Of a stretch of DNA of 64,000 nt, positions 25,678 through 43,676 are shown one piece after another. The notes below the pieces were generated by a model. It saw only the letters and a list, made by a program, of their open reading frames with translations. It was not told where the DNA came from and ran no database searches. Origin of the DNA: Alphaproteobacteria bacterium (lineage in GTDB: Bacteria; Pseudomonadota; Alphaproteobacteria; Rickettsiales; JABCZZ01); NCBI GenBank assembly GCA_035906055.1, contig JAMIFV010000043.1, forward strand, positions 455 to 64,454. The letters are read 5' to 3'. Numbering within the stretch: the stretch's first letter is position 1; each line of letters begins with the position of its first letter. Both the position numbers and the translations under genes were made by a program.

Positions 25678-25745
25678 TGTCATACCGCACTTGTTGCGGT
25701 ATCTCATGCAAAGTAAGGAGACCCCGCAATAAATGCGGGGTGACA
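25678..25745. repeat. inverted doublet of GTCA-hairpin repeats (REPIN-like; family D)
   Basis: 25678-25705 is TGTCATACCGCacttgtTGCGGTATCTC. 25717-25745 is GGAGACCCCGCaataaatGCGGGGTGACA. The first is a diverged inverted copy of the second. The element starts 2 nt after the kinase stop. Confidence 0.6.
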
Positions 25746-25747
25746 AT

Positions 25748-26356
25748 ATGCAAGATTTCCGCCCCACCCTGTTGCACCATATCCTTGAACTCGTGCCGTT
25801 TGACGGCTGGAGCGATTACACGTTCCGCGAAGCCGCCAGTCGCGCCGGGATCACGGAAACCGAGGCCACACGGGCCTTTGGCGGCGGCATCCGCGACTGT
25901 GTACGCTATTACTTTGACCAGATAGATGAGCAGCTTAAAAAACAATACCCACCCGGCTCGCTTTCAGCCTCACGTGTGCCTGAGCGCGTTGAAACGCTGG
26001 TGATGGCGCGTTACGCACTCATGCTGCCTCACCGTGAGGCGGTGAAAAGCGCCGCAAGTGGAAATTTACTGCCATGGAACGTTAAAGGCGCGTTGAAATC
26101 ACTCTACCACATGACCGACACGATCTGGCGTCTGGCGGGCGACCAGTCTACCGACTATAATTTTTATACCAAACGCATGACGCTGGCGGCAGTGCATGTG
26201 CCTACGTTCCTTTACTGGCTGAACGACCATTCCGCCAACCTTGAAGATACGCGGCGATTCCTTAAAAAGAGACTTGCCGGAGTTGCAGAATTCGGAAAGA
26301 AAAAGAAAAGTTTGGCATCAAAACTTAATGCATTCTCTTATTATGCAAAACGCTAA
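25748..26356 (+). CDS. COQ9-family protein
   Basis: MQDFRPTLLHHILELVPFDGWSDYTFREAASRAGI... matches the bacterial COQ9 / rpsU-divergently-transcribed family pattern as I recall it. Start moved to 25748, out of the hairpin. Confidence 0.7.
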   Translation: MQDFRPTLLHHILELVPFDGWSDYTFREAASRAGITETEATRAFGGGIRDCVRYYFDQIDEQLKKQYPPGSLSASRVPERVETLVMARYALMLPHREAVKSAASGNLLPWNVKGALKSLYHMTDTIWRLAGDQSTDYNFYTKRMTLAAVHVPTFLYWLNDHSANLEDTRRFLKKRLAGVAEFGKKKKSLASKLNAFSYYAKR

Positions 26357-27210: not shown

Positions 27211-27212
27211 CT

Positions 27213-27250
27213 TGTCACCCCGCGCGAGCAACGCGAGTTGCGGGGTCTGG
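27213..27250. repeat. family D hairpin (inverted orientation), left flank of GIY-YIG gene
   Basis: TGTCACCCCGC-gcgagcaacgcgagtt-GCGGGGTCTGG. The reverse complement begins CCAGACCCCGC and ends GCGGGGTGACA, the same termini as 27568-27596. Confidence 0.6.
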
Positions 27251-27271
27251 CCATACAGCAGGGCGGAACAC

Positions 27272-28892
<1,621 letters not shown>

Positions 28893-28998
28893 ACTTCACC
28901 AAATTGTAACATTACAGACATAAAATCGTAGCCTGACGTCTTTAAAATAGCGGCTATCGTATTTTTATAAACCGGTAAATTACAGTCTGGAATCCAAC

Positions 28999-30912
28999 GT
29001 GGCACCTAAGAAAACCAGTTTTGAAGCCTCAAATAACCCTACGCTGAGAATGTTCCTCAGTGTGTTCGGCGATCCGGACACCGTGCAAAGGGGCCTTCAG
29101 GAATACTGGCAGGACAAAGGCAGCTTTACCTCGCCAGCGGAAATCTACAATTTCCTGATGGACAAAAAAGTTGCTGAGGGAGCAATATCGCAACACGTTG
29201 CGAAAAATCTTAAAACTACATTTAAAGATAGCTTTTCGCCAGAACACAGCACCGGCTTTCATTCCGCCCATCGCGAACCCGTCATCAGCGCTCTGGCACG
29301 CCTTTATGCGCAAACAAGCGGCCACGACTCTCCTGTATGGCACATTGAGGGCGATATTGGCAATTTAAGCGGATTGAATACTGCAATGAACAAAGCAGCC
29401 GCAGAACTGCAGGCTTCCGACCCTCAGGCCTTTAATGGCCTGCTTCAAGCAAACGCCATCAAAGCCGAGGATGCCAAGGCGGCAGAAAAACTGGGGCGTG
29501 CAATGGCAGACCGCGTGATGTATGCTATCTGCCAGATAACGGCCAACAGACTGCAAACGAAATGCGATACTGTCGGAATCCGCACAGGCGGAGATGAGTT
29601 CACAGTTATTGCCACCTCTCAGAACAATCCATTGAATGAGAAAGCCATCAAAACCCTTCTGCGCGATGCCCAACGCGATGTAGCCGCCTTCGTGACAACA
29701 GCAGACCTCACGCTTGTTCCCCATGGGCGCGACAGACGTAAAATAGGGGTTGGCGTTGGCCTGGCCCCGTATGACCTGCGCTATGCAACACGTGATGAGC
29801 ATCTGGAGATCGAGGCAGGACTTACCCGGTCGAAAGATGAATCCGACAGGATTCTACATGGCAATAAGCGAAAAATGTCTAACATGGAAATGCAGCCGGT
29901 AAATCTCACCGCTTTATCGCAGGCACTCTCAGGCTATCCTCTGCCCATTGTTCACACAGCAAGCCCTCAGCAAGAAGATTATGACCCATCACGCGTTCCC
30001 CCGGAATCCGCACGCCAGAACGCGTTACTTCAAAAGTTGGGAGCTAAATATACGGAACTAAGCGCTGCGGAACAGAAGGCCATTAATGCCACTATTGCGC
30101 TTACCCGTGAAAACGACATCGTCGTCAATCTGCCTATGTTTGGCAATATGAGCCAGACCCAGCTACCTTACTTCCGTAAGGTGGCAGACAAGGAAGATAA
30201 AGGCCCCCGCCTTATCAATATTGATTTCAGCAATATGGCTGGCGGCAACAAACTTGGATATGAAGTAGGCGATGCCATGGCGCGGCGCTTCAGGGATGTA
30301 ACTATCGGTGCCATGCTGAAAACTAAGCTGCCGGAAGTGGATATAGAAGGCAAAACAAAAAGCCTTGCGGATTTTCTGCCTTTCCTCGCGGCACGCCCCG
30401 GCGGTAAATTCGCCTTGCTGCTGCCGGACAGTGTTAGCGACGATGTTCTCAACAGCTTCAGAATCAATCTGGAAGCAGGGCTCAAAGCGGTTTCAATGAA
30501 ACCTCTGGATCTGGGACAGGATAAAGAAAGAATCATCAGGGACATCCGCCAGAAGGCAGCGTGGAGCGCTGAGAAAGGCAACGATGATTTTCTGGCAAAG
30601 ACCTTTGGTGCCAACCTCGAAAGATTGCAAACCGCAAAAGGCGAGATTGAAATCACCTTGGACAAGATCGTGGCCCAGAACAGTGGAGTTTCCGGTTCTT
30701 CGGTGGTGATGACGCACACTCCGCAGGGCAGGAACCTTGACTATAACCTATCACTTCGCGATCAGATGGAGCCGCTGGAAGTGGAAGCCAGGACGCTTCA
30801 GGACGCTATCACCTCGGCACATGCGGATGCAGCCCACGGTGGCGGAAGAAGCTTTGTTGGCCGTGAACTAGCAAAGAAAGCTCGCACCGGAGGCGGTCTT
30901 CCGCCCCACTGA
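28999..30912 (+). CDS. hypothetical protein with two divergent GGDEF-like (nucleotidyl cyclase palm) regions
   Basis: 637 aa with a GTG start. Region 1 is HIEGDIGNLSGLN...GRAMADRVM...GIRTGGDEFTVIA. Region 2 is LINIDFSNMAGGNKLGYEVGDAMARRF...AARPGGKFALLLPD. No TM segment, signal peptide or recognisable sensor domain. GC appears lower than in the neighbouring genes. Confidence 0.6.
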   Translation: MAPKKTSFEASNNPTLRMFLSVFGDPDTVQRGLQEYWQDKGSFTSPAEIYNFLMDKKVAEGAISQHVAKNLKTTFKDSFSPEHSTGFHSAHREPVISALARLYAQTSGHDSPVWHIEGDIGNLSGLNTAMNKAAAELQASDPQAFNGLLQANAIKAEDAKAAEKLGRAMADRVMYAICQITANRLQTKCDTVGIRTGGDEFTVIATSQNNPLNEKAIKTLLRDAQRDVAAFVTTADLTLVPHGRDRRKIGVGVGLAPYDLRYATRDEHLEIEAGLTRSKDESDRILHGNKRKMSNMEMQPVNLTALSQALSGYPLPIVHTASPQQEDYDPSRVPPESARQNALLQKLGAKYTELSAAEQKAINATIALTRENDIVVNLPMFGNMSQTQLPYFRKVADKEDKGPRLINIDFSNMAGGNKLGYEVGDAMARRFRDVTIGAMLKTKLPEVDIEGKTKSLADFLPFLAARPGGKFALLLPDSVSDDVLNSFRINLEAGLKAVSMKPLDLGQDKERIIRDIRQKAAWSAEKGNDDFLAKTFGANLERLQTAKGEIEITLDKIVAQNSGVSGSSVVMTHTPQGRNLDYNLSLRDQMEPLEVEARTLQDAITSAHADAAHGGGRSFVGRELAKKARTGGGLPPH

Positions 30913-31006: not shown

Positions 31007-31915
31007 ATGTCCGGCGGCTCCACGAAAGTTATCATCATCTCCCTTTGCGCCAATTTCGGCATCGCGCTGTCCAAGCTGGGCGGCTCGCTCTACACAGGCA
31101 GCGCGGCGCTGCTGGCCGAAGCCGTGCACAGCTTCTCCGACTGCGGCAATCAGGCACTTTTGCTCTGGGGCGGGCATGTGGCCAAAAAGGGTCCGTCCGA
31201 TAAATACCCGCTGGGGCGCGGCAAGGAGATGTTCTTCTGGTCGTTCGTAGTGGCGCTGCTGCTGTTCAGCATGGGCGGCATTTTCAGCCTGTATGAGGGC
31301 ATCCATAAACTGCATAGCACCGAGCCGCTTTCCAACCCGCTCGTAGGCGTGGTCATACTGGGCATCGCCGTGGCGCTGGAAGGGTTCTCTTTCTATGCCT
31401 GCCTAAGGGAAGTGCAGCTACAGAACAAGCACAAATCCATGTGGGACTGGATACGCAATACCATGTCCGCCGACCTGCTGGTCATCTTCCTTGAAGACCT
31501 TGCCGCCCTGCTGGGCCTTATGTTTGCACTGGTGGCGCTTACGCTCGCATGGATCACCGGCAACCCGTTCTATGACGCGCTGGGCTCCTGCCTTATCGGC
31601 GTGCTGCTGATCGGGGTAGCGGTGATACTGGCGCGCGAAGTGAAGCCCATGCTGATCGGCGAGCGCCCGGCGGAAGAGTACGAACCGAAACTTCAGGCGA
31701 TACTGGATGCCATCATGCCCGGAGCGAAACTGATGCGTCTCATCGCGCTGCAACAGGGCGTGGACGCAGTGCTGCTGGCCTACAAGATCACTCCAGCGGG
31801 CGGTGCAGCCGACATCCGTACGGCTATTGCATCGGTCAACAGCTTCGAGGCGAAAGTGCGCGAGAGCTGCCCCGAGGTCAAATGGCAGTTCGCGGAACTT
31901 GACGATAAGGATTAA
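31007..31915 (+). CDS. cation diffusion facilitator family transporter
   Basis: 302 aa; SLYTGSAALLAEAVHSFSDCGNQ motif and six predicted TM helices. Confidence 0.85.
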   Translation: MSGGSTKVIIISLCANFGIALSKLGGSLYTGSAALLAEAVHSFSDCGNQALLLWGGHVAKKGPSDKYPLGRGKEMFFWSFVVALLLFSMGGIFSLYEGIHKLHSTEPLSNPLVGVVILGIAVALEGFSFYACLREVQLQNKHKSMWDWIRNTMSADLLVIFLEDLAALLGLMFALVALTLAWITGNPFYDALGSCLIGVLLIGVAVILAREVKPMLIGERPAEEYEPKLQAILDAIMPGAKLMRLIALQQGVDAVLLAYKITPAGGAADIRTAIASVNSFEAKVRESCPEVKWQFAELDDKD

Positions 31916-32259
31916 TAAGACGGTGTAGCGGGCATGTCGTTGAGTTCTTCAGGCGACATGTCGAACGGGGTAAGCGCTTTTTCCTGCTGGGGCTGAACCG
32001 GAGCCTGCGGCACGGCCTGCTGCGGGGACAGGTATTGCGGATTGACGGGAATGCGCTTCTGTTCGCCCTCCTTACGCCCTGTCAGTGCGCGTTTATTGGC
32101 ATCACTCTGCGCCTGCCCGCTGGAGGTAAAGCATTCCCAGCTTTCACAGCGCTCGCCGATCACAGGCATGTGCCGCCCAAGATCGTCCGCCCATCCGCAG
32201 CCCTGCAATGCAAGCAATACGGAGAAAACCGGGAGAGTGCGCGTAAATATCTTTGTCAT
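31912..32259 (-). CDS. hypothetical lipoprotein
   Basis: 115 aa; lipobox VLLALQG|C after a signal sequence; Pro/Gln-rich C-terminus. Confidence 0.6.
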   Translation of the reverse strand: MTKIFTRTLPVFSVLLALQGCGWADDLGRHMPVIGERCESWECFTSSGQAQSDANKRALTGRKEGEQKRIPVNPQYLSPQQAVPQAPVQPQQEKALTPFDMSPEELNDMPATPSY

Positions 32260-34551: not shown

Positions 34552-34628
34552 GCACCCGTAGCTCAACTGGATAGAGTATTGCCCTCCGAAGGCAAGGGTT
34601 GCTGGTTCAAATCCAGTCGGGTGCGCCA
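34552..34628 (+). tRNA. tRNA-Arg (anticodon CCG)
   Basis: Manual fold. Acceptor GCACCCG/CGGGTGC, D arm GCTC-AACTGGATA-GAGT, anticodon arm TTGCC-CTCCGAA-GGCAA, T arm GCTGG-TTCAAAT-CCAGT, discriminator G, encoded CCA. Confidence 0.9.
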
Positions 34629-34636
34629 GTTTTCGC

Positions 34637-36655
34637 TTAAGCGGCGGACTTGATCAGCACCTTTTCCCTTGGGCCGTCAGCAAGGATGCGCGAGCGCCCC
34701 ACCACAATGATACGGTCGCATGCCGACAGCAGGTGATGGCTGTGCGTGCTGATAAGCATGGTGCAGGTGCCTTTGAGCGCCGCAAGCTGGCGCGCCAGAT
34801 GTTCTTCCAGCTGCGCGTCCAGCCCGTTCGTCGGTTCGTCCAGCAGCAGCAATTGCGGCTCAAATGCAATCGCCCGTGCCAGCGCCACCAGTTGTTTCTG
34901 CCCTCCTGAAAGCGCATTGCCGCGCTGTCCTGCCTCGGTCGTCCAGTTGAGGCCGTTCTCCTGGAAGCTCTTTATCAGGCCGGTTATTTCAAGCGCCTTG
35001 CGGCGCGCTTCAGAAGAAAGCTGCGGTCTGCCGGCGCGAATATTCTCTTCGATCGTGCCGTCGATCAGCGAGACGTCCTGTGGTTTGTAACCTATCATGC
35101 GCGAAATATCGTCCGCAGTCATCGTGGATACGGGAATATTATCGATCAGCACCTGCCCCGCATCGGGGTGGATAAGCCCGGTGACAAGGCGCATCAATGT
35201 GGTTTTACCGCTGCCCGGCGCCCCGGCGATGCCCACCATCTCACCGTGCCGGATCTGCAGGGTCACATCCTTGAGCACAGGATGCCCCCCATGCCCCATA
35301 TTGCAGGTTACGTTATCCAGCCGCACTGAAGCTTGCGCCATCTCATGCGCAGCAACAGGCTTGCGCGGCGCATAGCCGGTGGGCAATATCCGGTTTAACT
35401 CCCTCAGCGCATTGCGCAGTTCATAGTACCGCACAAACAGCGTGGTGACCGAGGAAAAGCTCGCAATCATCCTCGCCGTGAGCATGGAGGCCGCCAGTAA
35501 CCCGCCGGAAGTAAGGCTGCCCGCTTCCACCATGTAGGCCCCCCCCACCAGCACGACGGCATAGGAAAGAAACGACAGCTCATTGCTGGCCGACTGCCCG
35601 ATGCCAAACCACACGCGCGCCATGCTGGAGGAATAGGACGCCGTATTACTCGCGCCATACCATTTATTGGCAATGGCGTTCTCGGCATATTTGCCCAGCA
35701 GCGCGTCGCGGGAGTGGATAATGTCCGCCAGCAGGCCAAGGCGCTTCTCGCTGGCACGGCTGGAATTCTTTTCATAGCGCAGCGCCGGGCGGATAATGAG
35801 GGCGTTTATCACCACCACCATAAGCCCGAAGCCAAGCCCCACAAACACCAGCGGCCCCGCAACCAGTGTGATTGCCAGCGCAAACAGGATGAGGAACGGC
35901 AGATCCGCCAGCGCCAGCATGTAAGTGGACGATACGAAATCGCGGTAATGCACCAGCTGCTTGTAACGCTCAAGCACCATGCCTATCTCAGGCAGGGCAT
36001 TGGGCTTCGTGTTCATGAGGCTGCGCAGTATCGTGCGGTCAAAGCCCGCGTCGCTGGAGCGTGCCACGCGTTCCGACACCAGCGTGCGGATGACACGCAG
36101 CGAGAAATCCATCACGGCGATGATGCCCATGCCTATGAGCAGCGCCCACATCGTCGCGGTTATGCCGTTGGCCAGCACTTTGTCGTATACGAAGCTGCTG
36201 AACAGCGGCAATGCCAGCGCGAACATGTTCACCAGCACACCGCACAGGAATATCTGCGCCAGCTTCGGCGTATGCCTGCGGATATGCGTCATCACACGGT
36301 CCGCTTCACCGTAAGGCTGAAGGATCACCAGTATCTCGGCCACATTGTTCAGGTCGTCGGGCGCTACGCCGCGGGCGACAGTGCCGTTTTCATTTACGAT
36401 GCAGCCGTTTTCCGCAGCACCGGCGACCGGAACATAACCGCCATCGTTTAGCAGCAGCACGCAGCCCACCTGTCCGTCTTCGTCGGGCAGCGCCTGATAC
36501 AGCAGCGGCATGCGCTTATGCACCATGCCTACGCTGGCAAGCTGATCTTTAAGCTCATTGTCACTGGGAGCCGCACGCTCAGATGCAAGCAATACACCGC
36601 GCGTTGCAAGCACTGCTGAAATGGCCCCACCGAGCGACTGGACCGCCATTATCAC
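34637..36655 (-). CDS. type I secretion system permease/ATPase (ABC exporter) with ~130-aa N-terminal extra domain
   Basis: 672 aa. TM domain, then Walker [10 protein letters not shown], signature [14 protein letters not shown], Walker B LLLLDEPT. The start (GTG 36655 or ATG 36649) overlaps or abuts the stop of the RTX gene. Confidence 0.92.
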
Positions 36656-39600
36656 GCCCCGTAATGCACATTAAGCTGTGCGATCTGTGTTATATGGGCT
36701 GGCTCGGAATAATAGCGGTAGACGTAGTCGGAGCCGGAGCCGGTGACCGTGAAATCGCCAGCGGCGGTGAAAGTGTCGCCTGTATCCAGCCTGAAAGCAA
36801 GCGTGGAACTGTTACCCGTATCCACCAGACCTCGTATGTCGCTGGCGGAAAGGGAGTAGGTGTTACCGCTAGCCGAATTGCGCACGTCCAGCGACTCGAT
36901 GGATACGTAACGGGAGCCGTCGAAGCTGTTGGCTGCCAGAGAGGTAAGCCCCGCTATTATCAGGCTGTCAGTGTCGCCGCCGCCGTCTATCAGCGTGAAG
37001 GTCGCCAAATCGCTGGCATTAATATAAAAGCTGTCATTGCCGAGGCCGCCATTAAGCGTGTCCGCCCCGCCGCCGCCGCTAATGATATCGTTACCGCTGC
37101 CACCATTGATGACATTGGCAGAACTGTTGCCATAGAGCACGTCGTCATAGCCAGAACCGGTGATGTTCTCGACATTGGTGATGGTACTGTAGGAATAGAT
37201 GCCGGTGGAACCCGTCCTCGCCTGATAGACGGAGAAGCCGCTGCCCCAGTAGTAGGCCTTGTCGGAAGAGCCGAAGAATGCGCCATCACTGAAAAAGACC
37301 TGCACGCCCGTGCTAGCCGAACTATACCAGTTATTGTCAAATATCACGGTATCGGTGCCGCTGCCACCGTCGATGGTATTGCTGCCCACCGTGGCATATA
37401 TAGTGTCGTTGCCGCCAAGGCCGTAAATGGCGTTCGTGCCGCCCTGCGCGTTGATCTGGTTGTTACCGCCGTTACCCACAAGGATGTCGTTACCGCCAGC
37501 GCCCAGGATATTCTCGATATTGACGAGGAAATCAGTACCGGAATACCCCGTGCCGAACCCGGTGTAAGCAAGGGCTGAACCTGTGGGGCTGCTGCCTGCC
37601 GCGATCGTCAGCGTGGATATGCCCCGGTCAATGTGATCGGCCACGCCGTTACTGTTGATATCAGCGGTGCCATCAAGGTAGATCACCGTATTGTTGTTAG
37701 TATTGACATAATACGTATCGGTTCCGCCGCCGCCGTCGACGCGGTCATTATCCGTCATGCGGATAAAGTCATTGCCGGAACCGCCGAAGATAAAATCCGT
37801 GCCATTGCCCGGATCATAATCCATCGCGGTGGTGGTGCCCCAGATAACGTCGTTGTACGCGCTGGCGATTATGCGGTCGATCCCGCCCTGCGTATACGTA
37901 TCGCCGATGGCGTGTGAAGAAGCGTCCGCAGCGGTTACGCCCCATCCGGCGCCGCTGGAAGCGTTTACCGTTATGGTCTGGCCGAGGCTGTTTCTCGCCG
38001 TACGGCTTACGGAATCAAAATTGACCAGCACGCCCACAGGGGAACTGTTATAATAGATCGTATCATAAGCGCCTGACGTGGTGATTACGCTGTCGGTAGC
38101 GCTATTGAGGTAAAAGGCATTGGTACCCGCACCGCCGTCCAGATATTTGGTGCCGCTGCTGGAGCTGTACAGGTTGTCGTTACCGATGCCACCGTAGAGA
38201 TAATCCGTACCAGCGTTACTGTAGAGGGTGTCGTTGCCATCGTTACCATACAGCACATCGTTGCCGTTACTGCCGGTAATGGTGTCGGCACCGCTTCCGC
38301 CGAGGATCGACGTGATCGAGCTGACGCCGGTGGTCGGCGTGAATGCATACAAGTCGCCGTTGGCAAGGCCAGCCGTGCCTGCGCCCGTCAGCAGGTTGAC
38401 GACAAGACCGGTAGAGTCCGCGGTGTAATTGATCGTGTTGGTTTGTCCTACCCCAAGGTTAGCGCCGTTAGTGCCATCATAACGCACGCCTGCATGCTGG
38501 CTGTAGAAATAATTATTTCCGCTGCCGCCATAAAGCGCGTCATTACCTGCAATGCCGGTATAGAACGTATTATTCCCGTCGCCGCCATAGAGTGTGTCGT
38601 TGCCGGTGCCGCCGGTAAGCGTGTCGTTGCCGTCGCCGCCATAGATCGTATCGTCGCCGCCTCCGCTGGAAATCACGTCGTCACCCGCACCGGCGGTAAT
38701 GGTTTCGGTGGCCGCCGTGCCGGTGATCGTGTCATTGTTCTGCGTGGCGATAAGCCGGGTAATGCCGCTGAACGTGTCGTTTAAGCCCGTGCCTGCCGCT
38801 GTGCCGGAGAGCAATATGGTAAGGCCGGTAGTGGTAACCGTGCTGTAATCGAGCGTGTTCACGCCGCCGCCGCCGGTGATGGAATTCGTGCCCAGCCCCG
38901 GCCTGAACGTATCATCGCCCGAACCGCCGATCAGCGTATCGTCATTGTCGCCCGTGGTAATCGTATTGCCGCCATTGCCGACGGTGATATGGTTGTTGCC
39001 CGCCCCGGCGTTGATCACGTTAGCACCGTCGCCAAGCACGATCGTGTCAGCACCTGCGCCCGCCGTCACGGTGTAATTGCCGCCACCGGCCTGAATATCG
39101 TTAGCGCCGTCCCCTGCCTGGATATTGCCGCCGCCGGAGGTAAGCCGGATAATATCGTCACCGGCACCGCCGGTAATCGTATAGTAGCCGGTGCCGCCGG
39201 TGATAGTGTTGGTGCCGTCACCCGCCGTTATCGTGCTGTCGCCATTACCGACCACGATAGTGTCCGCACCGCTGCCGGTAGTAATCATGTAAGCGCCTGC
39301 GCCAGCGGTAACGCTGTTCACGCCGTCGCCCGCAAATATTTCTCCGCTGCCGTCACCGACAGAGATCGTGTCATCGCCCGAGCCTGTGGTTACGCGGTTA
39401 TAACCGGCCCCCAGCGTCACGCTGTTGGTGCCGTCACCCGCGTCGACGATATTATCACCCGCCAAGGCCGTGATCGTATCGTTGCCGGAACCGGTGGATG
39501 CCGAGTTATTGCCCGCCCCCAGATCCACGATGTTGTTGCCGTTGCCCAGTGCCACCGTATCGTTGCCTTCGCGGGCATAGATGGTTTTGTCCCCATCTCC

Positions 39601-40917
39601 GCCGGTGATTGTGTCGTTATTGCGTCCGGCATGCACTTCGTCATTGCCGGTGGAAAGGGCGATGATGTTGGGCTGATCCTGCGTAGGCAGGATGTAAATC
39701 TCCTGCAGCCTGCCCTGATTTTCGTAAACCAGCGACTGGTCGGTCACCTGGCTCACATCGGTAACGTCCATATACAGGAAACGGAACGTCTGCTGACTGT
39801 GGAACTGTTGCGCACGCGTGGTCTTGCCGGTCACATCCACGGTAATATCGAAGCTGCCCGTTCCAGCAGTATCATAAATGAGGGTAAAAGAATCCTGCGC
39901 CAGCACGCTGCTTGAAGAAAGCGTCCAGTTGCCGCCGCCATTGTCGGTAGCGCCCAGAATGGAAACACCCGCCGGAACCCCGGATATCTGGACGTCATCC
40001 AGTGTAATGAAATAGCCTGCCACATTCAGGATAAACTGCTTGGCGTAATTGCTGGTGCTGACGGCGGGGTTGCTGTTGCCAACCGCTGGCCCCTGCGCGT
40101 AGATCAGGTCGTTGCCTGCGGTGCCGGTGATCGTGGCAGCGGAAAACTGCAATGCGTTGCGCGGGCCGATCTGCGCGTCCGCACCCGAACCCGCCGCACC
40201 GCCACCGCCATAAATGATGGTGGTGCCGGGCATGGTCGTGGTGTCATAAGTCGTGCTTACAACGTTGCCCATGAACAATGTGGTAATCGGCGTCAGGCTT
40301 AAAGGGGGCGGAACACCGGGAGGAGAAGCCGACGCCTGCGGGGGCGGCTTGTATTCATGCGGCGGTTCGTAGCTGTAATCCGAAGTATGCAGGTTCTGGA
40401 TGATCTTCTGTGCCTTATCGAGCATCTTTTCCGCAGCGGAACCTTCAGTGTTCTGGCTAGTGGACGACGTGCTCTGGGACGAGGAAGACGACGACTCATC
40501 CTGCTTGTGCTGCTCTTTTTCCGTCTCGGCCTGTGCCTTGGCCTCCTTGACGGCTTTCTCCACCGCTTCTTCCAGCTCGGCCCTGGTAAACTCCTTGGAG
40601 AGGTCTTCTTCGGCGGGCTTCTGCTCCTGCATGTCCGCCGACGTAAGCAAGGTGGAGCTGTCTACGGCACGCAATGTGGAATTCACCTGCGCCAGCAGCG
40701 CGTCCGCCGCCATCTTCTGACCTTGAAATTCTATTTCCGCAGGGGACTCGCTCATTGCTGAAAGCCCCGCGCCCGGCAGCACGATCAGGCTTCCGTCCTG
40801 TAACTGCAGCAAAATATCCACGTCGACAATGTCGATCCTGCTGATGGAGGAAAACGCCACATCAGAAAGGACATACGCCCCTGCCGCATTCGGTTTTACA
40901 AGTGCCTTCTGTGACAT
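36652..40917 (-). CDS. large RTX / hemolysin-type calcium-binding repeat protein (putative T1SS substrate, adhesin-like)
   Basis: 1421 aa. N-terminus ...ISRIDIVDVDILLQLQDGSLIVLPGAG resembles Bap/LapA-type prefix modules. Next comes a charged, Ser-rich and Pro-rich linker. The central region has hundreds of residues of GxGxD/N nonapeptide-like repeats, including canonical GGAGDDVISSGGGDDTIYGGDGNDTLTGGTGNDTLYGG. No Cys-rich or signal-peptide features. The acidic, Gly-rich C-terminal region is typical of T1SS cargo. Confidence 0.9.
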   Translation of the reverse strand: MSQKALVKPNAAGAYVLSDVAFSSISRIDIVDVDILLQLQDGSLIVLPGAGLSAMSESPAEIEFQGQKMAADALLAQVNSTLRAVDSSTLLTSADMQEQKPAEEDLSKEFTRAELEEAVEKAVKEAKAQAETEKEQHKQDESSSSSSQSTSSTSQNTEGSAAEKMLDKAQKIIQNLHTSDYSYEPPHEYKPPPQASASPPGVPPPLSLTPITTLFMGNVVSTTYDTTTMPGTTIIYGGGGAAGSGADAQIGPRNALQFSAATITGTAGNDLIYAQGPAVGNSNPAVSTSNYAKQFILNVAGYFITLDDVQISGVPAGVSILGATDNGGGNWTLSSSSVLAQDSFTLIYDTAGTGSFDITVDVTGKTTRAQQFHSQQTFRFLYMDVTDVSQVTDQSLVYENQGRLQEIYILPTQDQPNIIALSTGNDEVHAGRNNDTITGGDGDKTIYAREGNDTVALGNGNNIVDLGAGNNSASTGSGNDTITALAGDNIVDAGDGTNSVTLGAGYNRVTTGSGDDTISVGDGSGEIFAGDGVNSVTAGAGAYMITTGSGADTIVVGNGDSTITAGDGTNTITGGTGYYTITGGAGDDIIRLTSGGGNIQAGDGANDIQAGGGNYTVTAGAGADTIVLGDGANVINAGAGNNHITVGNGGNTITTGDNDDTLIGGSGDDTFRPGLGTNSITGGGGVNTLDYSTVTTTGLTILLSGTAAGTGLNDTFSGITRLIATQNNDTITGTAATETITAGAGDDVISSGGGDDTIYGGDGNDTLTGGTGNDTLYGGDGNNTFYTGIAGNDALYGGSGNNYFYSQHAGVRYDGTNGANLGVGQTNTINYTADSTGLVVNLLTGAGTAGLANGDLYAFTPTTGVSSITSILGGSGADTITGSNGNDVLYGNDGNDTLYSNAGTDYLYGGIGNDNLYSSSSGTKYLDGGAGTNAFYLNSATDSVITTSGAYDTIYYNSSPVGVLVNFDSVSRTARNSLGQTITVNASSGAGWGVTAADASSHAIGDTYTQGGIDRIIASAYNDVIWGTTTAMDYDPGNGTDFIFGGSGNDFIRMTDNDRVDGGGGTDTYYVNTNNNTVIYLDGTADINSNGVADHIDRGISTLTIAAGSSPTGSALAYTGFGTGYSGTDFLVNIENILGAGGNDILVGNGGNNQINAQGGTNAIYGLGGNDTIYATVGSNTIDGGSGTDTVIFDNNWYSSASTGVQVFFSDGAFFGSSDKAYYWGSGFSVYQARTGSTGIYSYSTITNVENITGSGYDDVLYGNSSANVINGGSGNDIISGGGGADTLNGGLGNDSFYINASDLATFTLIDGGGDTDSLIIAGLTSLAANSFDGSRYVSIESLDVRNSASGNTYSLSASDIRGLVDTGNSSTLAFRLDTGDTFTAAGDFTVTGSGSDYVYRYYSEPAHITQIAQLNVHYGA

Positions 40918-40956
40918 ATCTGCGGTTTTCCGAGACCCTTACGCGTTATAACGATC

Positions 40957-42333
40957 TCAACCTTGCCCTCCTTCCATGCGATCCCTCAGGCTGCGCGCCT
41001 CGGTCACCATTTCTTCCACAAGGATGCTCTGGTGACTGATGGAGGTCGAGATTGATTCTATAATAGTAGATAATGACTCAAAACCCGTTAACTTTTCTTT
41101 AATATCCCACAAATGACGGCCTGATCCAACACCTGCCTGTTCAATCGCCCCGGCCTTTTCCACCATATTCCTGAAGGAAGCCATAACATCGCTATGCGAG
41201 CGCCGCTGGGAATCGAGCACTGCCGTCAACGAGCTCGCCAATTGCACATGAATATCAGATACCTGCTGAAGAACACGCTGCTGTTCCAGATTAGAGGCAA
41301 CAAGGGAGCGCAATTCTTCCAGCGTGCGTTCGCCGGTTTCCTTCATACGCGGACCGAACCCCAGCAGTTCGTTGAGCTTGGTGGTGCCGTTGATGCTGTT
41401 TTCAAACGACTTAAAAAGAACATCGAGTTTTGTCAGAAGCTTATCCATTCTATTGGCCAGCAGCACGTTGCTTTGCCAGTTCTTGCCAGCCCCCGGCTCC
41501 ACCCCCTCCAGCTCCATTGAGGCGAGCGTCGCGATCGTCTGCGACTGCATGGCGATATTGGGATTGCTCTTGCGCGTGATCTGCGTCAGGTCATGCATCA
41601 CATTACGCGCGCACATTACTACACGGCTGACGAAATGGCGCAGGTTGGTCATCATGATGGACAGCATGAGACTGGTCACAAGGCCAAACATGGACGCGGA
41701 AAACGCGATGCCCATGCCCGCCAGCGGCTTGCGCAATTCATGGATAAGCCGCTTGAACTGTTCTTCGGGGCTTTCACTGCTGCCGCTCATGCCGCCAAGC
41801 ATTTCCGAAATGCCGGTCAGCGTTTGCAGCAGACCGATGAACGTGCCGAGCAGGCCAAGCGCGATCATGAAGCCGACAAGGAACTGCGGAAATTCCAGCT
41901 TGCTGTTATAATCGTCCAGCAGCGCGTGCAGTTCGCTTTCGATCGCGTTCTGGTCAAGCTGCGAGCTCAGCGTGCCGCCCGTTTCAGCGATATGCTTCAG
42001 GTAATGCCTTACGTAGCGCTCACTGATCCAGGGCTCTTCGAGCAGTTCCTTCATCGGCACACCGGCGGCAGCTTCCTTGCCAAAGCGCTCGATGACGCGG
42101 AAATCCTTCTGCGCGCTGCGCAGACGTTGCAATATGATAAGCGTGCCGTACAACGCCGTGCAGATGATCGCGCCGCTGATGGCGAGATCCTTTTCAATCG
42201 CTTCCTTGACGAAATCGCTGAAATAAAACGCCAGCAACAGAATAAGCACCAGCGGCGACATCACCTTGATCGTCACCACCACTTCGCGGTAAAGAATCGG
42301 GTCTTTTTTTGCCAGGCTGCGAAATACGTTCAT
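40957..42333 (-). CDS. MotA/TolQ/ExbB proton-channel family-like protein with long C-terminal helical tail
   Basis: 458 aa. Two N-terminal TM helices, then FLVGFMIALGLLGTFIGLLQTL and GMGIAFSASMFGLVTSLMLSIMMTNL, which match the MotA_ExbB core (GLLGT..G ... A...T..GL). About 220 C-terminal residues are heptad-like and charged. ATGA overlap with the HlyD gene stop. Confidence 0.7.
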   Translation of the reverse strand: MNVFRSLAKKDPILYREVVVTIKVMSPLVLILLLAFYFSDFVKEAIEKDLAISGAIICTALYGTLIILQRLRSAQKDFRVIERFGKEAAAGVPMKELLEEPWISERYVRHYLKHIAETGGTLSSQLDQNAIESELHALLDDYNSKLEFPQFLVGFMIALGLLGTFIGLLQTLTGISEMLGGMSGSSESPEEQFKRLIHELRKPLAGMGIAFSASMFGLVTSLMLSIMMTNLRHFVSRVVMCARNVMHDLTQITRKSNPNIAMQSQTIATLASMELEGVEPGAGKNWQSNVLLANRMDKLLTKLDVLFKSFENSINGTTKLNELLGFGPRMKETGERTLEELRSLVASNLEQQRVLQQVSDIHVQLASSLTAVLDSQRRSHSDVMASFRNMVEKAGAIEQAGVGSGRHLWDIKEKLTGFESLSTIIESISTSISHQSILVEEMVTEARSLRDRMEGGQG

Positions 42334-43676
42334 ATGGAATCCTTAAATATACTGTAAGTGAATTTTCTGACCGGAGACAGAATGAGGTTGAGCACGGTGC
42401 GTTTGCCCGTGACAATATCCGCTGTTGCCGTCATGCCGGGTGACATGGAAAGCCCCTGATAGCTTGACGGCAGCGCGCTGACCAGAACGCTGACGCGGTA
42501 AAACACCTCCCCGCGCGCATCGGCGATGGTGTCGGCGCTGATCTCCTTCACCTTGCCTTTGAGCACACCGAGTTCGCCCACATCGTAGGCGGAAAGGCGC
42601 ACCGTCGCGTCAAGCCCCGGTGCCAGATACCCTCTGTCCTTGGGCAAGGCCTGCGCTTCAATAAGTATCTCGCTCGTGGAGGGGATCAGCTCGAGTATCT
42701 TGTCGCCTGCGCGAATAACCCCACCGATAGTGTTCACCGTGATGCGGTTCACCGTGCCGTCGATCGGCGAACGTATGTCCGTGCGGCGGTAACGATCGGA
42801 ATCGCCGCGCAATACCTTCTCAAGTCGTTCGATCTCCGCAAGCGCCGCCACATAATCGGTCTGGGCGCTCGTTACGAAATCCGACTGGATGGCTTTCTTC
42901 CTCGCATTCTCCTCGGCTATGGCCGCTTCCAGCGTGGGGATGCTGCTGGCCGCATCGTTGGTTTCGGTCTCCAGCCTGCCTTCACGGCTGCGCGCTTCAA
43001 GCAGTTCCAGCTTTGAAGACGACCCGCGCGCGGCCATTTCCTCGATCAGCCCGGAGCGGTTATGCGCCACCCCCAGTTCACCCCTGAGCTTTACCACGCG
43101 CGTTTTTGCCTCGTTAAGGCGGGCGGTATGCTGGTTGATCGCCTCCGCATGCACCTTCATCTCCTGCGCCAGTTTTTCCCTGCGCGAAGCGAACAGCTTC
43201 TCTTCGGCCCTGCCAACAGGCGTGTTTGCCAGCTCTTCGGGAAGCGTAAAGTCAGCACTTCCCCTGGACTCGCTCTCCAGCCTCGCGGCACGCAGTTTCT
43301 GCGTCGTGATCTTGGCTTTGGTCTCTTCCAGATTGGCCCCCGCCGATACATTATCAATCGTCAGCAGCAGGTCGCCCTTCTTTACCGCAGCACCTTCCAC
43401 AACGGCAATCGAACCGATGATGCCACCTTCGAGATGCTGTATGGACTGGCTACGCCCGGCCGCGATGATCTTGCCGTTCACGCGCACCACCCGGTCGATT
43501 TCGGATACATAAGCCCACAGCAATGCCGCAACCACGCAGAATGCGACCAGCAGCACGTACAGCATCGTTCCTTCCATGCGACCGGGCGCGCGCGGCGGCG
43601 GCACGGCACCACCAGGCGGCTGTGAGGAGGCCGCGCTGTCAATGCCCTTCAAGAAGTATCTCAACATGGCCTGCAT
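42330..43676 (-). CDS. HlyD-family type I secretion periplasmic adaptor (MFP)
   Basis: 448 aa. One N-terminal TM helix. Lipoyl-like VNGKIIAAGRSQSIQHLEGGIIGSIAVVEGAAVKKGDLLLTID, a long coiled-coil hairpin, and C-terminal beta-barrel motifs. Confidence 0.9.
   Translation of the reverse strand: MQAMLRYFLKGIDSAASSQPPGGAVPPPRAPGRMEGTMLYVLLVAFCVVAALLWAYVSEIDRVVRVNGKIIAAGRSQSIQHLEGGIIGSIAVVEGAAVKKGDLLLTIDNVSAGANLEETKAKITTQKLRAARLESESRGSADFTLPEELANTPVGRAEEKLFASRREKLAQEMKVHAEAINQHTARLNEAKTRVVKLRGELGVAHNRSGLIEEMAARGSSSKLELLEARSREGRLETETNDAASSIPTLEAAIAEENARKKAIQSDFVTSAQTDYVAALAEIERLEKVLRGDSDRYRRTDIRSPIDGTVNRITVNTIGGVIRAGDKILELIPSTSEILIEAQALPKDRGYLAPGLDATVRLSAYDVGELGVLKGKVKEISADTIADARGEVFYRVSVLVSALPSSYQGLSMSPGMTATADIVTGKRTVLNLILSPVRKFTYSIFKDSI

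Follow-up and report, generated by a model that had tools for sequence, protein, structure and literature searches.

Tandem GGDEF-superfamily palms, one intact and one carrying a conserved GG-K-F site, in a candidate nucleotidyltransferase encoded beside eno in an alphaproteobacterium

GGDEF enzymes are thought to need the sensor-driven dimerisation of two identical active domains. Cas10 (Csm1/Cmr2) of type III CRISPR-Cas systems places two GGDEF-type palms, one with an intact catalytic site, in one chain and makes cyclic oligonucleotides at an asymmetric donor/acceptor site with one active centre, and class III cyclases of the C1-C2 type, such as human soluble adenylyl cyclase (AC), likewise fuse a catalytic and a degenerate palm-type domain, homologous to each other, into one polypeptide. 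Enzymes with a single centre (Cas10, cGAS-type) can still cyclise by repositioning the intermediate. The stand-alone, sensor-less Cas10/GGDEF-type palm enzyme mCpol (Panoptes) is active without a trigger in phage-bacterium conflict (PMC12657230, PMC12657218); it consists of one small palm, which pairs symmetrically with a second copy of itself around two ATP, and a 2TM-beta or CARF-TM effector is encoded next to it (PMC12657230). GGDEF domains have also been described in polyvalent proteins, and it was proposed that invading elements use cyclic-nucleotide signals (Iyer et al., 2017; PMC5512222). Here we analysed a 64,000-nucleotide stretch of an alphaproteobacterial genome (Rickettsiales, JABCZZ01; assembly GCA_035906055.1, contig JAMIFV010000043.1, positions 455 to 64,454; hereafter the window), in which a gene lying between eno and a cation-efflux (CDF) gene encodes a 637-amino-acid protein that is predicted to fold as two GGDEF-superfamily palms and that may be an active single-chain nucleotidyltransferase.

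A preliminary description, made from the sequence alone, had recognised in this protein two tandem, divergent palms, one with a GGDEF and one with a GGKF motif, a resemblance that could have arisen by chance. We built an alignment of 30 family sequences (A2), which we used for profile searches, an AlphaFold2 model and column statistics. Compared with the PDB, the A2 profile aligned palm 2 (profile positions 344-436) with residues 2-90 of 3icl (E=0.007), starting from the entry motif (DfVTGLP against DTVTGLPNR), and palm 1 with the GGDEF chain 5euh (E=0.013); a phmmer search of the protein itself against the PDB gave a best match of only E=1.3. When the sub-alignments of palm 1 and palm 2 were compared with hhalign they matched each other (P=5.5e-4) with their motifs in register (IEaDIxNLGGLN with vHiDFnNmaGGN; RxGGDE with qGG-KF). 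AlphaFold2 produced a model with a mean confidence (pLDDT) of 68 from six sequences and of 87.7, with a pTM of 0.87, from A2, and the model has the beta-alpha-alpha-beta-beta-alpha-beta order in both halves. With either model, the top 20+ Foldseek matches in the PDB were all GGDEF domains (probability 1.0; target-normalised TM-score 0.55-0.63), including 3ign (1.7e-4), WspR, SiaD, DgcB and PleD. These profile, hhalign, model and Foldseek results indicate that the GGDEF pentapeptide is not coincidental, and at the level of predicted structure they confirm that both halves are GGDEF-superfamily palms, one intact and one altered.

Palm 1 follows a four-helix N-terminal domain and carries the features IEGDIxNLxGLN ... 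RxGGDEF, together with TGFxxxHR in the place of the canonical TGLxNRR, D119, N127, D171, R195, G197-G198-D199-E200-F201, G250/G254 (beta4) and K279. The large insertion previously suspected in this palm is real: it is a family-specific stretch of 33 residues (128-160) that separates helix alpha1 from the KLGRAMADRV helix. Likewise, the claim that the RxxD I-site is missing held in both palms; in palm 1, C188 and V191 stand at -7/-4 from R195, an alternative column numbering likewise gives no RxxD, and the family consensus upstream of RxGGDE is LxxxGxVxAIRxGGDEL. In the A2 columns, R195, G198, D199, E200, G250, D373, D409, N417, G468, F471 and G566 are invariant. For palm 1, T85, D119, N122 and N127 are each found in 29/29 sequences, H91 and R92 (of the entry motif) in 28/29 each and G86 in 27/29; R195, G198, D199 and E200 are found in 30/30 each and G197 and K279 in 29/30, and position 171 is D in 23 sequences and N in 6.

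Palm 2 has the features NIDFSNMAGGN ... RPGGKF and D373-x-V-x-x-L-P (family consensus DxVTGLP), along with D409, N417, D425 and inserts at ~443-462 and ~506-560. Where GG[DE]EF would be expected it has G468-G469-K470-F471, that is, a conserved Lys-Phe in the place of the catalytic acids. D373, D409, N417, G468 and F471 are each present in 30/30 sequences and G469 in 29/30, position 470 is K in 28 and R in 2, position 425 is D in 21 and N in 9, and position 466 is Q in 19, R in 5 and K in 3. The preliminary description had spoken of a lost catalytic pair, which is right in that Lys-Phe replaces the acids but understates the case: since GG-K-F is strictly conserved, palm 2 holds a variant site and not the product of decay. 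By motif register, we take D119 and D409 to be the equivalents of the metal-binding D327 of PleD, N127 and N417 those of N335, D171 and D425 those of D344, R195 that of R366 and K279 that of the AK Lys (K442); N335 and D344 together are the guanine-reading pair of PleD.

Among three ~80%-identical alleles (L001, L090 and L091), the overall ratio of nonsynonymous to synonymous divergence (dN/dS, omega) was 0.09-0.13; it fell to 0.02-0.04 in the core of palm 1 and ranged from 0.07 to 0.32 in the N-domain, insert, linker, palm 2 and C-terminus, with palm 2 at 0.07-0.17. Palm 1 is the most constrained part of the protein, as expected of a catalytic domain. The palm 1 insert is more variable (dN 0.17-0.28), and no region diverges more than the linker between the palms, which has 24% identity to L001.

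We consider it an evenly balanced question whether the protein is an active tandem-palm nucleotidyltransferase of the GGDEF superfamily, in which palm 1 carries out catalysis and palm 2 binds nucleotide without catalysing. It would work as a soluble, sensor-less single chain, the two fused palms replacing the homodimer that ordinary diguanylate cyclases need. Because D119, the GGDE loop (G197-E200), the R195/K279 phosphate contacts and the N127/D171 guanine pair are kept, palm 1 should bind Mg-GTP and perform nucleotidyl transfer. Palm 2 retains the nucleotide-binding scaffold (D409, N417, D425 and the GG) and would most likely hold the acceptor nucleotide or an intermediate without catalysis of its own. 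The resulting asymmetric donor/acceptor site would resemble that of Cas10 or the C1/C2 cyclases, and the enzyme would make a di- or oligonucleotide, linear or cyclic, that contains G. In the literature on tandem or dual GGDEF-GGDEF enzymes we found no single-chain enzyme with a conserved GG-K-F second site. A single chain pairing a catalytic with a Lys-substituted site would be a different solution from the dimerisation of identical domains, as in Cas10 and the C1/C2 cyclases, and such an enzyme could make a product other than cyclic di-GMP (c-di-GMP).

Next, we examined how widespread this architecture is. The gene had been called an orphan, and a word-indexed search of 5.8 billion proteins agreed with its rarity, returning five homologs only, one identical and four at 38-39% identity; however, an exhaustive profile search of 1.84 billion cluster representatives retrieved 244 relatives at E<=1e-3, 92 at <=1e-10 and 28 at <=1e-30, and all 28 of the last group have the full architecture. 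A second word-indexed profile search added two further members only, both distant, a pattern scan of 185k species genomes found no family member, and a metagenome scan found 2 loci only. With ~250 proteins in 1.8 billion, the family is thus small. Pfam, NCBIfam, PADLOC and PHROGs hold no model for it, and the AlphaFold2 prediction described above supplies a structural model of high confidence. We took a census of 161 relatives with hidden Markov models for the N-domain (N), palm 1 (P1) and palm 2 (P2); these models were derived from the family and weak second-domain calls may be partial, and with them the architectures were P1-P2 (43), N-P1-P2 (36), P1-P1 (38), N-P1-P1 (3), InPase-P1-P1 (1) and P1 only (29). 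A tandem pair was present in 121 of the 161, as an intact plus a GGKF-type palm in 79 and as two intact palms in 42, and RxGGDE[LIVF] is near-universal among the relatives. The N-domain occurs with palm 1 in many of them (46/161 by the N model), including modules within giant phage proteins, and matches on viral contigs span query residues 33-296.

Several relatives are modules of the polyvalent GGDEF type (Iyer, Burroughs, Anand, de Souza, Aravind, 2017). They are true sequence relatives (hmmsearch E 1e-8 to 1e-18) of the RxGGDE[LIV] clade, usually with a tandem pair and some with an N-terminal helical domain; they differ in being embedded in injected proteins of 2,000-7,800 amino acids with InPase, LPD, ART, Acb1 or NUDIX domains and in having usually both palms intact, whereas the window protein is free-standing and chromosomal, consists of the N-domain and two palms only, and has a GGKF second palm. 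Five proteins had the features of large polyvalent proteins. P0120 (3,897 amino acids), whose gene neighbours that of an SU10-type adaptor on a phage contig, combines InPase, GGDEF, LPD5, LPD1 and LPD39, with InPase before the palm; P0094 (4,196 amino acids) carries the anti-CBASS domain Acb1, and P0042 (4,156 amino acids, Trinickia) a NUDIX domain. The other two are open reading frames (ORFs) of 3,000 and 3,093 amino acids on two ~80-kb IMG/VR contigs (L094 5583-14585 and L096 6162-15443). In L094, ~90 residues separate an upstream InPase (651-783) from the palm module (875-1022), which is followed by LPD5, LPD1 and LPD38; L096 has ART-PolyVal and an InPase downstream of the palm module. The association in L094, L096 and P0120 looks like a recurrent pairing of a synthase with a pyrophosphate (PPi) remover in injected phage proteins.

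A further relative, P0052 (1,533 amino acids; QQG36150.1; L092 10001-14602), comes from a metagenome-assembled genome of the bacterial predator Micavibrio aeruginosavorus (CP066681). Besides the palm module it has a weak match to the eukaryote-type 3'5'-cyclic-nucleotide phosphodiesterase PDEase_I (residues 129-186), so that it may be a fusion of nucleotide synthase and degrader in a predator. Its C-terminal glycine-zipper hydrophobic or transmembrane segments are like internal regions of tape-measure and tail-lysin proteins, and similar tails were found in P0007, P0011, P0015 and P0062.

We then compared the locus with those of its relatives. The window comes from a Rhodospirillales-like alphaproteobacterium that has no near relative among sequenced genomes: compared with 185k GTDB species representatives, its enolase reaches 76-77% identity at most (in Magnetospirillaceae, Tagaea and Azospirillum). 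No relative of the tandem-palm family occurs at 80 other alphaproteobacterial eno loci or elsewhere in the window. In the immediate clade (window/L003, L001, L091, L002 and L005) the gene always lies 3' of eno, and the genes downstream of it differ (CDF, glycosyltransferase or alcohol dehydrogenase). Among the distant members, one stands beside an M23 peptidase and RsfS, another, on a 1.76-Mb contig, beside RNase H and DUF815, and P0052 beside a pseudouridine synthase and a P-type ATPase. We found no recurring partner gene: the neighbours differ at nearly every locus, and only the linkage to an upstream eno is kept in the immediate clade.

The tandem-palm gene is far more divergent than its flanks. 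Amino acid identity between the window and L001 is 96.8% for eno, 87% for CDF and 39% for the tandem-palm protein (across L001 and L091, ~97%, 87-89% and ~39-40%, respectively), and between the window and L005 it is 93.9% for eno and 33% for the tandem-palm protein. The synonymous divergence (dS) of eno places the window, L001 and L091 at equal distances (0.86-0.90), while the tandem-palm proteins of L001 and L091 are 79% identical (dN 0.14) and each differs from the window allele with a dN of 0.62-0.64 and a nucleotide identity of 50-51%, against ~86% in the flanks. The drop and recovery of nucleotide identity coincide exactly with the eno stop and the CDF start. As previously described, the composition of the gene is also distinct from that of the eno and CDF flanks, with a GC content of ~0.51-0.53 (0.52 overall) against ~0.58-0.60 outside (0.58 in eno and CDF) and a third-position GC content (GC3) of 0.54 against 0.73 in four flanking genes; the L007 allele likewise has a foreign GC3. 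The gene of the full-architecture relative P0013, on a 73-kb alphaproteobacterial contig (L008; GCA_016307145.1, JADMIO010957412.1), has a GC3 of 0.54 against 0.79 in its flanks; as the contigs of that assembly are numbered up to nearly one million, it probably stems from the genome project of a eukaryote with a bacterial associate. An intact ORF in conserved synteny is kept in at least four allele classes that have diverged deeply, and dS is saturated in the deep comparisons between alleles. The equidistant eno dS, the sharp identity boundaries and the foreign GC3 point to deeply diverged allele classes at this locus. Recombination is the most likely source of the window allele, ahead of uniform fast evolution and of detectable positive selection. 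Positive selection in an arms race was considered as the cause of the divergence and dropped, omega being below 0.35 in all regions; since none was found, allele replacement or ancient allele classes are the preferred explanation.

What the enzyme would be used for is less certain than its chemistry. A role as generator of a nucleotide signal in conflict between organisms, as an effector or counter-defence-type module, seems possible but doubtful. We propose it because the module occurs in injected phage polyvalent proteins and in the Micavibrio protein, and because the alleles are deeply divergent and compositionally foreign, which is circumstantial support for a role in conflict; the preliminary description had raised a new nucleotide-second-messenger synthase or a secreted effector as possibilities. 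InPase near the module in L094 and P0120 (with LPD1/5/38/39, ART, Acb1 or NUDIX also present) would fit an active PPi-releasing enzyme used in conflict. In its most extended form, the proposal would be that these proteins are an unrecognised class of single-chain asymmetric GGDEF-superfamily synthases, with a catalytic GGDE and a GG-K-F acceptor palm, that converge on Cas10, make a non-canonical G-containing linear or cyclic oligonucleotide, and serve predatory or host-associated alphaproteobacteria, and phages by way of their injected polyvalent proteins, as a means of manipulating or jamming a target cell's nucleotide signalling; taken as a whole, we judge this unlikely. The company of pyrophosphatase, Acb1, NUDIX and ART domains and the occurrence in a predator would point to the production of nucleotide signals as an offensive or counter-defensive weapon, a role that was put forward in 2017.

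Several observations weigh against these readings. On the side of the enzyme, the Pfam GGDEF profile (PF00990), which the preliminary description had named as a check, matches the 637-amino-acid protein below threshold (E=0.0028; 17.9 bits for a gathering cut-off of 23.8; residues 163-229 only), although 16 of the 30 A2 members match it individually (E<=0.01; best 1e-6) and palm 1 without its insert scores up to 22.7 bits over profile positions 19-112 of 161. TIGR00254 is also sub-threshold (19.1 bits, cut-off 37.4), and palm 2 alone has no Pfam match. The canonical Lys of the beta1-alpha1 motif (the PleD K332 position) is Gly or Ser in the family motif D-I-x-N-L-G-G-L-N, the global TM-scores to Cas10 and soluble AC are low (0.19-0.27), and the relative P0012 is encoded between MCP/CheB genes and an exopolysaccharide (EPS) cluster, a classical c-di-GMP setting. 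On the side of the conflict role, no region of the gene has dN/dS above 1, a tblastn search against annotated phages and plasmids gave no match, and the 637-amino-acid protein has no recognisable secretion signal and, as the first reading had it, no sensor, transmembrane segment or signal peptide (maximum Kyte-Doolittle 19-residue mean 0.98). Moreover, there are no mobile-element genes near the gene and no meaningful flanking direct or inverted repeats.

It is somewhat unlikely that the protein is instead an ordinary endogenous diguanylate cyclase, whose palm 1 would form homodimers and make c-di-GMP for the cell's own control of motility or exopolysaccharide, while palm 2 would serve for regulation or as a scaffold, like the degenerate GGDEF domain of many GGDEF-EAL proteins. 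Degenerate GGDEF domains are well known as receptors, and the likeness to diguanylate cyclases (PleD, WspR, DgcZ) is extensive: they share the palm fold and are the best structural matches, palm 1 keeps the guanine-reading N127/D171 and all catalytic residues, and the beta1 metal Asp, the Asn/Asp pair, the RxGG[DE]E hairpin, the beta4 Gly motif, the post-beta4 Lys and the DxVTGLP / TGxxxHR entry motif are all present. The genomic setting of P0012 agrees with such a role, as do those of P0052, ~6 kb from a che cluster, and of P0005, which is followed by a glycosyltransferase. However, the tandem-palm protein has two palms per chain, the 33-residue insert, NLGG in the place of the FK of DxDxFK, a GG-K-F second palm, scores below the Pfam gathering and NCBIfam thresholds, and neither sensor, dimerisation domain nor RxxD I-site. 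In addition, the tandem pair is a conserved unit even within injected phage proteins and its GG-K-F does not drift. Almost every locus has different neighbouring genes, and a gene for housekeeping signalling would not usually show such allele divergence and foreign GC3 while staying at a fixed locus. The family is also extremely rare, unlike canonical diguanylate cyclases.

The two-palm layout also suggests an anti-phage defence system in which the protein, Cas10-like or resembling mCpol of Panoptes, would produce a signal, constitutively or upon infection, for an effector encoded elsewhere to read. Whole-chain Foldseek alignments matched soluble AC over ~450-470 columns (first model) and Csm1/Cmr2 over 617-675 columns (probability 0.7-0.9); with the dominance of the tandem pair, these alignments make the earlier analogy to Cas10 and class III cyclase pseudo-heterodimers plausible, although the global TM-scores given above are low. 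Weak matches to Csm1_B (3/30) and Cas10d (3/30) occur among the family members. Moreover, mCpol is a precedent for palm enzymes that work in immunity constitutively, standing alone and without a sensor (PMC12657230), and divergent alleles of atypical composition are typical of defence loci. Still, we consider this explanation very unlikely. Relative to Cas10 the order of the palms is reversed, the first one here having the intact site, and we detected neither an HD domain nor a Zn-finger D2 nor any cas/CRISPR neighbours (Pfam gave no HD or Cas match to the 637-amino-acid protein); the specificity residues look guanine-type and not the Ser/Asn ATP-type of Cas10 and mCpol. Unlike mCpol, the protein has two fused, non-identical palms, and none of ~10 loci inspected has an adjacent effector, CARF, transmembrane or cas gene; the PADLOC and PHROGs libraries gave no match to the protein, and the elaborated relatives that stand closest to it belong to the phage side, being polyvalent proteins that carry the anti-CBASS domain Acb1. 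The class III cyclases differ in turn, given that PF00211 does not match the protein even at E<=10, the active-site motifs are of the GGDEF type and the TM-score is ~0.2. Finally, homologous modules in giant phage proteins and the foreign GC3 of the window allele would be expected of a domesticated or decaying fragment of a polyvalent protein from a phage or conjugative element, with no current host function. This is extremely improbable and is largely refuted by the selection data, that is, by the strong purifying selection (overall, and above all in palm 1) and the invariant catalytic residues; the ORF is also intact and syntenic across the allele classes noted above, with no phage genes or repeats nearby.

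The coordinates of the gene, its domains and its surroundings are collected in Table 1, for which the motif positions were verified by translating the exact coordinates. An in-frame ATG at 29050 (M18) offers a second possible start that would give 620 amino acids and was chosen by gene callers for the identical Logan protein P0001; we favoured the longer GTG form because the N-termini of homologs align upstream of M18. The spacer between the eno stop and this GTG is part of the divergent cassette and likely holds the gene's own promoter and ribosome-binding site, although we found no consensus sigma-70 site in it and no convincing promoter or terminator for the gene. A perfect short palindrome, ATAGC-G-GCTAT (28947-28957), lies in this spacer and may be an operator or a chance occurrence.

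Table 1. Positions of the tandem-palm gene, its predicted domains and motifs, and other features of the window.
Feature	Position	Strand	Remarks
Coding sequence of tandem-palm protein, 637 amino acids	28999-30912	+	GTG start
N-terminal four-helix domain, residues 1-81	28999-29241	+	Helices in model: H14-21, H26-40, H46-59, H65-77
Palm 1, residues 82-290, predicted catalytic GGDEF-type domain	29242-29868	+	Foldseek, Pfam, conservation, omega
Palm 1 beta1 motif, IEGDIGNLSGLN	29344-29379	+	
Family-specific helical insert of palm 1, residues 128-160	29380-29478	+	Two helices in model
GGDEF signature, palm 1	29587-29601	+	GGDE invariant; fifth residue L, I, F, M or W across family
Inter-palm linker, residues 291-367	29869-30099	+	Partly low-confidence/disordered
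Palm 2, residues 368-585, variant GGDEF-type domain	30100-30753	+	Profile match to 3icl, hhalign to palm 1, conservation
Palm 2 motif, INIDFSNMAGGN	30214-30249	+	
GGKF motif, palm 2	30400-30411	+	
C-terminal long helix (586-612), basic Gly-rich low-confidence tail, stop	30754-30912	+	pLDDT <50 at 615-619 and 629-637
eno (enolase), upstream flank	27591-28892		
Spacer from eno stop to GTG, 106 bp, AT-rich	28893-28998	+	Nucleotide identity to L001/L091 falls from ~0.87 to 0.28-0.66 from here
Cation-efflux (CDF) gene, downstream flank	31007-31915		
COQ9-family protein, bacterial, beside PAS/HisKA histidine kinase	25733-26356	+	Pfam E 2e-26
Small GIY-YIG nuclease-domain protein, 123 amino acids, inserted between kdsA and eno	27212-27583	+	
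115-amino-acid ORF, lipoprotein-like signal (…LLALQGCGW…), Pro/Gln-rich tail	31912-32259	-	Without Pfam match
tRNA-Arg (CCG), between ABC-transporter ATPase gene and type I secretion locus	34552-34628	+	
Type I secretion locus	34637-43676	-	
ABC exporter, 672 amino acids, type I secretion locus	34637-36655	-	
RTX protein, 1,421 amino acids, type I secretion locus	36652-40917	-	14 HemolysinCabind stretches
MotA/ExbB-family protein, 458 amino acids, type I secretion locus	40957-42333	-	
HlyD-family adaptor, type I secretion locus	42330-43676	-	

Around the tandem-palm gene, the neighbourhood consists of eno, CDF, kdsA, the GIY-YIG protein and a sulfate-binding protein. COQ9 homologs, one of which is encoded further upstream, are characteristic of alphaproteobacteria. 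The 115-amino-acid ORF on the opposite strand overlaps the CDF stop codon by 4 nucleotides and is identical in L003 but only partly conserved in L001. Large RTX proteins and type I secretion systems are reportedly prominent in Micavibrio, according to the genome paper on strain ARL-13. The tRNA-Arg gene that borders the RTX island of the window is a possible integration hotspot, and the presence of a MotA/ExbB-like gene within the type I secretion operon is unusual.

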